Positions 30,001 to 33,000 of a DNA stretch of 33,994 bases are shown here, piece by piece. A program made the position numbers. Source of the stretch: a virus. Lineage: Duplodnaviria; Heunggongvirae; Uroviricota; Caudoviricetes. The stretch lies in the IMG/VR virus record IMGVR_UViG_2802429242_000009, positions 1-33,994 of that record; one strand, 5' to 3'. Every line of letters starts with the position of its first letter. Within the stretch, counting starts at the first letter, position 1.

Positions 30001-33000
30001 AAAACTTCAGTCATATCGTGATGAGCTTGTTCGCAATGCTGGCCCTGATGGTCCGGTTAATCTGGATTTGAAGCAATTAAGCGATCTGCGCAGCCAGTTC
30101 AGAATGGACGTGAAGGGGGAGCGACCAGTCTTACCAAACCGTTCCGATGCCGCCATTCAACGTGTTTACAAGGCGATGACCGACGATATCAATGGTGCCA
30201 TTGGTCAGAATCTTGGCAACGATACTCTCCGTAAATATCAGCAGGCCAATGCCGTCTACGCTGACGAAGCGGCGAAACTAAAGAATACCAGGCTGAAGAA
30301 TGTTCTCATGAAAGGAGACCTGACGCCGGAAGTTGTCAACAACATGCTATTCAGCAAGAACAAATCGGAAATTAAGACGCTGTATAACTCAGTTGGTCGT
30401 GTTGGCAGGGCGCAAATGCGCAATGGCATCATTGGAAAGGCGATGGAGAAATCTGGCGGATCCCCTGACCAGTTCCTTCGGCAGCTTAACATCCTGCAAA
30501 ACCAGACTGGCATCACATTTAAGGGGCAGGACGCTGCTTATCTGAAAGGATTAAAAAACTACCTGCAATCCACGCAGCAGGCTGCAAAAGCGGCAGTAAC
30601 AACACCCACAGGGCAGCAAACTATCCCGTTCATTATTGGGTATGGGACGGCAATGAACCCGGCGACAACTGGCGCAGCAGTAAGCTACGGACTTCTTACT
30701 CGCGCCTATGAGAGCGAGCCATTCAGAAATGCAATGCTCCGAATGGCAAACACCCCACGCGGATCAACAGCGTTTGAGAAAGCCATGCGGCAGGCGCAAA
30801 AGGCCATTAACGCCCTTACTCAGGGTGCCAAGTCTGATGCGTTGTCAGAATAGCTTCGCAAACACCAGGAACGTGCAAAAACCAAATATATAGAGCGCAA
30901 TATTCAACAGATCTCTTTGCATAGACTCATCTCATAATTAACAAATCATAACTGACATTAGTGCAATGCTGGGCAAGTTGCATCTTGTTCGGCATTGCTA
31001 CGTCCGGAGCAAATTAAATGACAGACATTACAGCCAATGTTGTAGTTAGCATGCCTTCGCAACTCTTCACTATGGCGCGTTCTTTTAAAGCGGTTGCCAA
31101 TGGCAAAATTTATATCGGTAAAATTGACGCGGACCCCGTAAATCAAGAAAACCAGATTCAGGTTTATGTGGAGAACGAAGACGGTTCTCATGTTCCTGTT
31201 TCGCAACCAATCATCATTAACGCTGCTGGATATCCGGTATATAACGGACAGATTGCCAAGTTCGTAACTGTACAGAATCACTCCATGGCTGTATATGATG
31301 CGTATGGCGCACAACAATTCTATTATCCTGATCTACTGAAATATTCTCCAGACCAGTTAAGGGCTGAGCTTTCTGGCCCTGATGGCGCATCTCTGGTTGG
31401 TTATGGAGGCACAACCGTAAAGATTGAGCTGGAGATCTTGAAAGCTACACATGATTCATTAATTGATAAAACAGGATTTAACGCTATTGGCCGCTTTCTC
31501 AATCTTTCAGAGCTTCGCTCCTGTGTTCCGGAGGAGGCAGGGCAGATTGTATACGTAGCATCAGCAGCTAGCACTACACATGCTGAAAACCACCTTGGTG
31601 GCGGCTTTTTCGAGTCTGTTGATAACATTCAGGCATGGGCTGATGATGGTGGAATTGTAATCAAGCCAGAAACTGGAACGATGGTATGGAGACGAATTAA
31701 TTTTACCACTTACGACATGCAATTTTGGGGGGTGAAACCTGACGGAGTCACAGATAACGCAACAGCTATAACTCTTGCAACTAACTTTGCCCGCTCAAAC
31801 AAATGCATTCTAGAGGCTCCTGCTGGAAACATAAATACATCAAAAACAATCCCAATTTATGACAATATGGGAATTAGAGGACAGGGAAAGGCTGAAGCGA
31901 CAGTTTTTTATAAAACAACAAATGACAAAATAGATCTCACAAAAAATGGAGAAGTAATTCTTCAGGTGGATGCATTATGTGCTTTTATACCAAAGCAATG
32001 GGATCTAACAGATAACTCAATGAGTTCATTTTGTGTTAACGGTAGAGTTGAAAACTGCATGTTTAGAAGGCTTGGCTTAACACAAGAAAACGTAGATTCT
32101 TATAGAAATTATTACGGACTGTTTTTAGGAAAATCAGCAGCACCAGTTATCAGACAGTCAATTTTTGAATGTGCTTATATCGGATGCTTCTCTTATGTGC
32201 CGTTCTCTGGCGTAATGGAAATGGTCGGTTTCCCACAATATCCAGGGAAAGGATATGCTGGAGTTTTATTTGAAGATTTTAGGGATGGTCAAATAAAAGT
32301 AATAGGCACTTCTATGGATATGCGCCTTGTTCAGGTTAACGGTTACCAGTTGTCATTTAGAATGTCAGGAATGCAATATACCACCATGACCAATTGTACT
32401 GCTGAAAACTGCACGCCAATGGATGGGGAGTCAATTTGCTATGCATTTGATTTTGTAAATCCTTATTGCATTGTCATGAATACTTGTGCAACAGAATTTG
32501 TTAAGGGTGGGCAACTGCGTGTTAGCGTTCAGGGAAACCCATCATTCAGACCATCTATTATTGTCAATGGCTTTCTGCCAATTGATCAACAAAGCCCGGT
32601 AATGCAAACACCTATAATAGATATTGATAATGGTGGCGTAGTTGAAATGAGTGTCATATTAAATGGTGGAGATTGGGCTATAAATCCATCTGCTGCAAAT
32701 TTAACCGTACCAAGAGCAAGCGGTTCTAAGTTGAAGGTAAGGATGATAGGGGTAAATGGGTCTCCGAAATCAATCTGGAACATCTCTGGTAACGCAGATG
32801 TTCAGGAGTTTTGAATTTACAAGTATTGACATAGCTCATAGATGAAACTAACCTGCCAAGATCATTAATGATATTGGCAGTGTTATGACTCAGAAAAACA
32901 AAATTATTCATAGCCTTACATCACTTCGAATGCTTGCGGCTCTTGGTGTATTTGTTAGCCATCTAGGCATTTTGTCTCAGTCTTCGATCTCGCAGTTCAA

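Follow-up and report, generated by a model that had tools for sequence, protein, structure and literature searches.

An O103-type receptor-binding domain on a P22-type tailspike in an Escherichia coli prophage

The receptor-binding domains (RBDs) of tailspikes are the main determinants of the O-serogroup that podoviruses infect. In P22-like phages (Lederbergvirus), the arrangement of these proteins as an N-terminal head-binding anchor, a neck and a β-helical RBD is textbook knowledge and already catalogued in databases and the literature. For O103, one of the ‘big six’ non-O157 serogroups among Escherichia coli that produce Shiga toxin (STEC), an O103 subtype of receptor-binding proteins (RBPs) has been described, which comprises those of the phages Ro103C3lw and TL-2011b and of the Lederbergvirus prophage RHB38-C21 (Pas et al., 2023; PMC10408124). 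TL-2011b itself is assigned to the genus Uetakevirus (PMC11522302; PMC10408124), and the combination of a Lederbergvirus anchor with an O103 RBD was already listed in silico in 2023 (PMC10408124). Here, we describe a tailspike gene of this kind and its downstream neighbor in the Caudoviricetes record IMGVR_UViG_2802429242_000009 of IMG/VR, of which we analyzed positions 1 to 33,994 (33,994 nucleotides; in the following, the window).

Its gene content identifies the window as a P22-like (Lederbergvirus) prophage of E. coli. Our analysis supports every part of the interpretation given in the first-pass annotation; what has to be corrected is where the composition shift lies. We consider it probable that its tailspike is a module-swapped P22-type spike, in which a domain that binds and cleaves the O103 O-antigen has been combined with the conserved anchor and travels with an acyltransferase gene.

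Modular structure of the tailspike

The first-pass annotation had proposed that residues 1–110 match the P22 head-binding domain and that the similarity then ends, and both statements agree with our alignments. Residues 1–113 cover the full Pfam profile PF09008 Head_binding (E 1.2e-64, 216 bits, cut-off 24). In a PDB sequence search, 99 of 118 residues (84%) are identical to Sf6 gp14 over residues 1–118 (7sg7) and 81 of 116 (70%) to the P22 tailspike gp9 over residues 1–116 (2vky/2xc1, aa 2–117); past residue ~118, this search yielded no significant alignment to any characterized or solved tailspike. On the DNA level, the anchor is 83–93% identical to many P22-like phages, the matches to 28 of these phages stop at gene nucleotides 215–347, and the similarity to P22-like phages across the whole window breaks off at ~31360. 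Judging from these alignments, a domain boundary lies at the end of the head-binding domain, far beyond chance.

The remainder of the protein also occurs on a different anchor, which bears out the proposed chimera. Residues 151–598 are 96% identical (95.6% on the nucleotide level) to the RBD of TL-2011b gp48 (YP_007001999.1; 697 aa; host O103:H25), whose ~240-residue N-terminal anchor is of the epsilon15 type and unrelated to the P22-type anchor that the window shares with other Lederbergviruses. Sliding identity splits the gene into five segments (Table 1). The neck, for which the structural model predicts helices at residues 111–119, 123–126 and 134–149, has close counterparts only in other Lederbergvirus tailspikes of the same type; with TL-2011b, it shares ~40–50% identity and a conserved motif LVGYG..TVK..L, and near-identity starts at ~31470–31514.

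The base composition of the gene is foreign to its surroundings, and it shifts non-randomly and in steps. While the phage backbone (1–30853) has a GC content of 48.8%, it is 39.6% in the intergenic region 5′ of the tailspike gene, 42.5% in the head-binding segment (the 7th percentile of same-size windows), 45–46% and thereby higher again for residues 114–235, and 39.0% for residues 236–598, with 30% at third codon positions (GC3). Residues 114–598 together reach 40.7%, which is lower than in any stretch of that size elsewhere in the sequence, and the GC skew is positive from ~31500 onward. The AT-rich shift claimed by the first-pass annotation thus exists insofar as the gene is AT-richer than the backbone, but it had been misplaced to residue ~110: the sharp drop is located at ~31750–31800 (residues ~240–260) rather than at the domain boundary (residue ~113), and coincides with a second recombination breakpoint. 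The proposed richness in Asn, Gly and Thr is only modest (G 9.9%, N 6.6%, T 6.6%).

The same breakpoint marks the divergence of a second β-helix allele from O103 hosts, found in E. coli S56 (locus L004, 5326–7119) and APEC20/16 (locus L007, 4036–5832). Up to residue ~240, its sequence is that of the window; after that, identity drops to ~60%. It is directly followed by gtrCBA, without an acyltransferase gene. At a further locus of the APEC20/16 genome (NZ_CP127297.1), there is a match to the N-terminal portion of the RBD, perhaps from a second prophage whose tailspike is related.

The C-terminal RBD is predicted to form a right-handed parallel β-helix. This prediction is based on an AlphaFold2 (AF2) model, computed from an alignment of 45 sequences of which only some have the head-binding anchor. 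Its nearest structural neighbors are tailspike depolymerases, in line with the earlier reading as a β-helix glycanase as far as the fold is concerned; catalysis would follow by analogy. Pfam family PF27114 Phage_tail_beta is precomputed for a protein identical to the window tailspike and, among the matches listed, for all 120 homologs except two fragments. Homologs are also known from Cronobacter, Cedecea, Yersinia, Proteus and further genera, and their RBDs follow anchors of the families PF09008 or PF18668 Tail_spike_N or have no Pfam anchor. A 31%-identical RBD homolog in a record of an Enterococcus faecium phage, Efm 3-10 (H149), appears to be a database oddity.

A putative active site is suggested by the tailspike of phage PAS7, a phage for which halos and a predicted acidic pocket have been reported (PMC11522302). 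The pocket residues map to D282, E293, E384, E463, N464, E493 and D523 of the window tailspike. Across 45 homologs, down to 43% identity, two of them (E463 and E493) never vary and two others (E293 and E384) almost never. It is unlikely, in our view, that the RBD recognizes O103 without being a glycoside hydrolase, be it as a binding-only spike or with lyase or esterase chemistry, given the conserved acidic residues, the halos of PAS7 and the depolymerases among the structural neighbors. The O103 repeat contains N-acetylglucosamine (GlcNAc), N-acetylgalactosamine (GalNAc) and a 3-hydroxybutanoyl-Fuc3N derivative and, to our knowledge, has no uronic acid, which would make a β-elimination lyase unlikely and hydrolysis the likelier chemistry.

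Association with serogroup O103

By the criterion of the published subtype (at least 30% amino acid identity over at least 60% of the RBD to an O103-assigned RBP), the window RBD belongs to the O103 subtype, being 96% identical to TL-2011b, 52% to PAS7 and 44% to Ro103C3lw at coverages of 96–100%. Among 50,697 records, this RBD family occurs in no E. coli phages other than these three, TL-2011b (host O103:H25), PAS7 (O103) and Ro103C3lw (O103), which were isolated independently and belong to three genera. In a panel of 16 strains, PAS7 produced plaques or clearing zones on O103 strains only (PMC11522302).

The same association is found in bacterial genomes. We detected DNA of the RBD in 10 of 5426 complete E. 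coli genomes and called O103 in this set with the O-antigen cluster (wzx/wzy) of strain 33-6, whose annotation includes a flippase and a polymerase of the O103 family. O103 wzx/wzy are present in eight of the ten carriers, compared to 32 of all 5426 genomes (Fisher's exact p = 2.5e-17). The two other carriers, WP8-S18-CRE-02 and GSH8M-2, have a remnant shattered by the insertion sequences IS1 and IS3, with a split tailspike. The prophages are inserted at varying places in the chromosome (near torT, argW, yegL/ibs and paoD), which speaks for independent acquisitions. The claim that this domain defines O-antigen specificity is supported by this strong association with one serogroup, and the RBD most likely recognizes the E. 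coli O103 O-antigen.

Could the RBD instead target another glycan, such as capsule, colanic acid or the enterobacterial common antigen (ECA), with the O103 link a by-product of the shared ancestry or ecology of its carriers? Several of these are indeed poultry isolates, which could reflect a shared ecology, two are not O103, and the profile phrog_8280 (‘colanic acid degradation’) matches residues 1–302. We nevertheless regard this as very improbable: the copies in the non-O103 carriers are pseudogenes, the prophages occupy different sites, the three phages from O103 hosts that share the domain were isolated independently, and the activity of PAS7 is restricted to O103 in the panel. The ‘colanic acid degradation’ label was rejected, as the match covers just the first 220 of 632 profile positions and mainly the shared anchor region.

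The idea that the gene is an inactive relic without current function deserves hardly any credence: degraded relatives do exist (a 147-residue fragment in 33-6 and 58-3 and the IS3-split copy in WP8-S18-CRE-02 and GSH8M-2), but the reading frame in the window is intact. Other intact copies are 97–98% identical to it on the protein level, among them a RefSeq protein (98%) that belongs to a cluster of 273 members, and the gene is surrounded by an apparently complete P22-like morphogenesis operon.

The linked acyltransferase and the genomic setting

An O-antigen-modifying gene had been suspected next to the tailspike, and the downstream gene indeed encodes a member of the Acyl_transf_3 family (PF01757, 83.6 bits, cut-off 31, residues 9–339) that matches the PHROG family phrog_3333 ‘O-acetyltransferase’ (E 5e-72); acetylation of O103 would be its presumed role. 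On the protein level, it is 63% identical to TL-2011b gp49 and 99.7% identical to the copy in E. coli 33-6. An 80%-identical homolog (P0122) is named ‘DNA injection protein’ at NCBI, another database oddity. No NCBIfam profile matched the tailspike or the acyltransferase.

Within the 5426 complete genomes, either allele of the acyltransferase is found in exactly the eight with the window-type β-helix and nowhere else; both carriers of the S56-type β-helix are devoid of it. We had considered the S56-type β-helix as an escape variant for acetylated O103, which finds no support, as neither of its carrier genomes has any copy of the acyltransferase. The order of RBD and acyltransferase recurs behind a Tail_spike_N anchor (locus L009) and in Yersinia aldovae (locus L010). 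One protein of 714 residues (P0066), perhaps a fusion or an artifact of a frameshift, matches both PF01757 and PF27114.

Table 1. Features of the tailspike locus in the window
Feature	Position	Strand	Remarks
Tailspike gene, P22-like (Lederbergvirus) prophage	31018..32814	+	598 aa + stop; directly 3′ of gp16-type DNA-transfer gene
Head-binding (particle anchor) domain, aa 1–113	31018..31356	+	PF09008; common to all P22-like phages; GC 42.5%
Linker/neck, aa 114–150, crossover zone between anchor and RBD	31357..31467	+	Predicted helices; P22-like nucleotide similarity ends ~31360
N-terminal subdomain of RBD, aa 151–235	31468..31722	+	
β-helix core of RBD, aa 236–565	31723..32713	+	Conserved acidic E293, E384, E463, E493, D523
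Last ~33 tailspike codons	32714..32814	+	Co-inherited with the downstream acyltransferase allele
Intergenic spacer, 70 nt	32815..32884	+	TTGACA 32826–32831; weak -10-like TAACCT 32849–32854; hairpin 32853–32880
Acyl_transf_3 membrane acyltransferase, 369 aa, presumed O-antigen O-acetyltransferase	32885..33994	+	PF01757, phrog_3333; GC 30.9%

The spacer between the two genes contains a promoter-like TTGACA box and a GC-rich near-palindrome of 28 nucleotides (CTGCCAA...TTGGCAG), which ends four nucleotides before the ATG of the acyltransferase gene. Box and hairpin are conserved between the window (32826–32880) and the loci L001 (6363–6418), L003 (5823–5878) and L009 (3366–3433), and compensatory changes distinguish the stems of different loci (CTGCCGGAA/TTCCGGCAG and CTGCCAGAAA/TTTCTGGCAG). 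They were found by eye and by folding rather than by the consensus scan for promoters and terminators, which returned fewer promoter-like sites than shuffled controls and, between the two genes, no terminator. The spacer lacks an obvious free Shine-Dalgarno sequence 5′ of the acyltransferase gene. The spacer may provide this gene with its own promoter and with a hairpin that limits translation or stabilizes the mRNA.

Downstream of the acyltransferase gene, just past the window, contig JABWNT020000025.1 (locus L006, 9868–13808) continues with gtrC-gtrB-gtrA on the opposite strand, followed by host ibs and yegL/yegK-like genes. The acyltransferase together with these gtr genes would equip the right end of the prophage with two predicted O-antigen modification systems, for acetylation and glucosylation. 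In E. coli 33-6 (locus L002, 5700–11900) and 58-3, a remnant at argW keeps the last 147 tailspike codons, the 99.9%-identical acyltransferase gene, gtrABC and intS, with the rest of the phage deleted, which suggests that the O-antigen-modifying genes were retained after decay of the prophage.

Upstream, the window has the expected virion operon. Portal, coat, tail accessory and three ejection-protein genes precede the tailspike, with matches to P22_CoatProtein, P22_Tail-4, Phage_stabilise, P22_gp7, Inj_translocase and Phage_P22_gp16, and the tailspike gene closes this P22-type operon, behind the gp7/gp20/gp16 ejection-protein genes. In a whole-window comparison, the structural genes are 94–97% identical on the nucleotide level to those of Sf6, CUS-3, HK620, Kapi1 and similar phages. 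The tailspike reading frame was confirmed, with an ATG start and a GGAG sequence eight nucleotides upstream. An antisense reading frame (30958..31317, 119 aa, TTG start) overlaps the conserved head-binding coding sequence and was treated as spurious. An identical tailspike, with PF09008 and PF27114 matches, is encoded on the NCBI contig mentioned above (JABWNT020000025.1; GCA_013369065.2), which differs from the window by one nucleotide in 10,977. The database copies, identical or ~98% identical on the protein level, are colinear over their full length, with the same anchor and the same RBD.

Proposed mechanism and comparison with known systems

We propose that the tailspike was assembled via horizontal module exchange. 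Residues 1–113, the genus-wide anchor, by homology dock a presumably trimeric spike onto the tail hub, and a short helical neck (~aa 114–150) connects them to an RBD of ~450 residues, composed of an N-terminal subdomain and the predicted β-helix. The spike most likely binds the O103 O-polysaccharide of the E. coli lipopolysaccharide (LPS) and, as a putative endoglycosidase, cleaves it hydrolytically with carboxylates, giving the virion access to the outer membrane; E293, E384, E463, E493 and D523 are the candidate catalytic residues. RBD and the low-GC acyltransferase gene move jointly as a two-gene cassette, which has been grafted onto at least three anchors, namely Tail_spike_N, the N-terminus of the epsilon15 type and the head-binding domain of the P22 type. 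Once the prophage is established, acyltransferase and gtrABC would most likely modify the O103 antigen and thereby block related phages. O-antigen acetylation that excludes superinfection has precedents in Sf6 Oac and in the O-acetyltransferase of phiV10. The general point that O-antigen modification may serve superinfection exclusion has been made before (PMC10408124).

Several points weigh against this interpretation. The enzymatic and binding roles of the tailspike and of every close relative are predictions, and for TL-2011b, too, O103 specificity was assigned in silico (group C, PMC10408124). The nearest solved structure is 18% identical, and the active site is a candidate only; the pectate-lyase-like family PF12708 (Pect-lyase_RHGA_epim) stays below its threshold (20.2 bits versus 27) and covers only residues 238–304; and the AF2 model is a monomer, whose head-binding part has a predicted local distance difference test (pLDDT) score of <50 and was left unused. 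The O103 association derives from carrier genomes and phage hosts and not from the window's own host (GCA_013369065.2), and the carrier counts are partly non-independent, as 33-6 and 58-3, GPEC349-628 and GPEC1176, and WP8-S18-CRE-02 and GSH8M-2 look clonal. Finally, the action of the acyltransferase on O103, and the resulting block of the window tailspike, is what we infer from its position and its perfect linkage with the RBD.

A farther-reaching version of this proposal strikes us as doubtful. It holds that RBD and acyltransferase form a self-contained, co-evolving mobile cassette for recognition and masking, with its own conserved promoter and 5′ hairpin, which moves between unrelated anchors across the Enterobacterales; in the window, its 3′ part, consisting of the last ~33 tailspike codons and the acyltransferase gene, would have been swapped for a 63%-identical allele, and the two acyltransferase alleles and the divergent S56-type β-helix without acyltransferase would correspond to chemically different O103 variants. 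If true, this would imply an arms race within O103 that is invisible to genetic serotyping.

In practical terms, an O103-directed domain would be useful for diagnostics, engineered tailocins and phage cocktails. The finding as such is already known, because GenBank contains the exact protein and published in-silico work lists an O103 RBD joined to a Lederbergvirus anchor. What the window adds is minor: breakpoints within the gene, a second acyltransferase allele that was exchanged along with the C-terminus of the tailspike, the perfect linkage of RBD and acyltransferase, and the conserved hairpin in the spacer.

Compared with the tailspikes Sf6 gp14, P22 gp9 and HK620 gp9, the window tailspike occupies the same gene slot after the ejection-protein genes, shares their N-terminal head-binding domain (~116 residues) and follows the same overall anchor-neck-β-helix design. 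The depolymerases closest in structure, gp86 of Acinetobacter phage Belisarius (24qi) and AS12 gp42 (6eu4), are by contrast only 18% identical, capsule-specific and attached to other anchors. TL-2011b resembles the window in the RBD and in a homologous acyltransferase gene that comes behind a spacer of equal length (70 nt), promoter-like box and hairpin included, but the last ~30 tailspike residues and the acyltransferase represent a different allele. The locus contributes one further natural combination of anchor and RBD and a second acyltransferase allele, and illustrates once more the established modular exchange of tailspikes and their pairing with O-antigen-modifying genes that block the reinfection of lysogens (lysogenic conversion).
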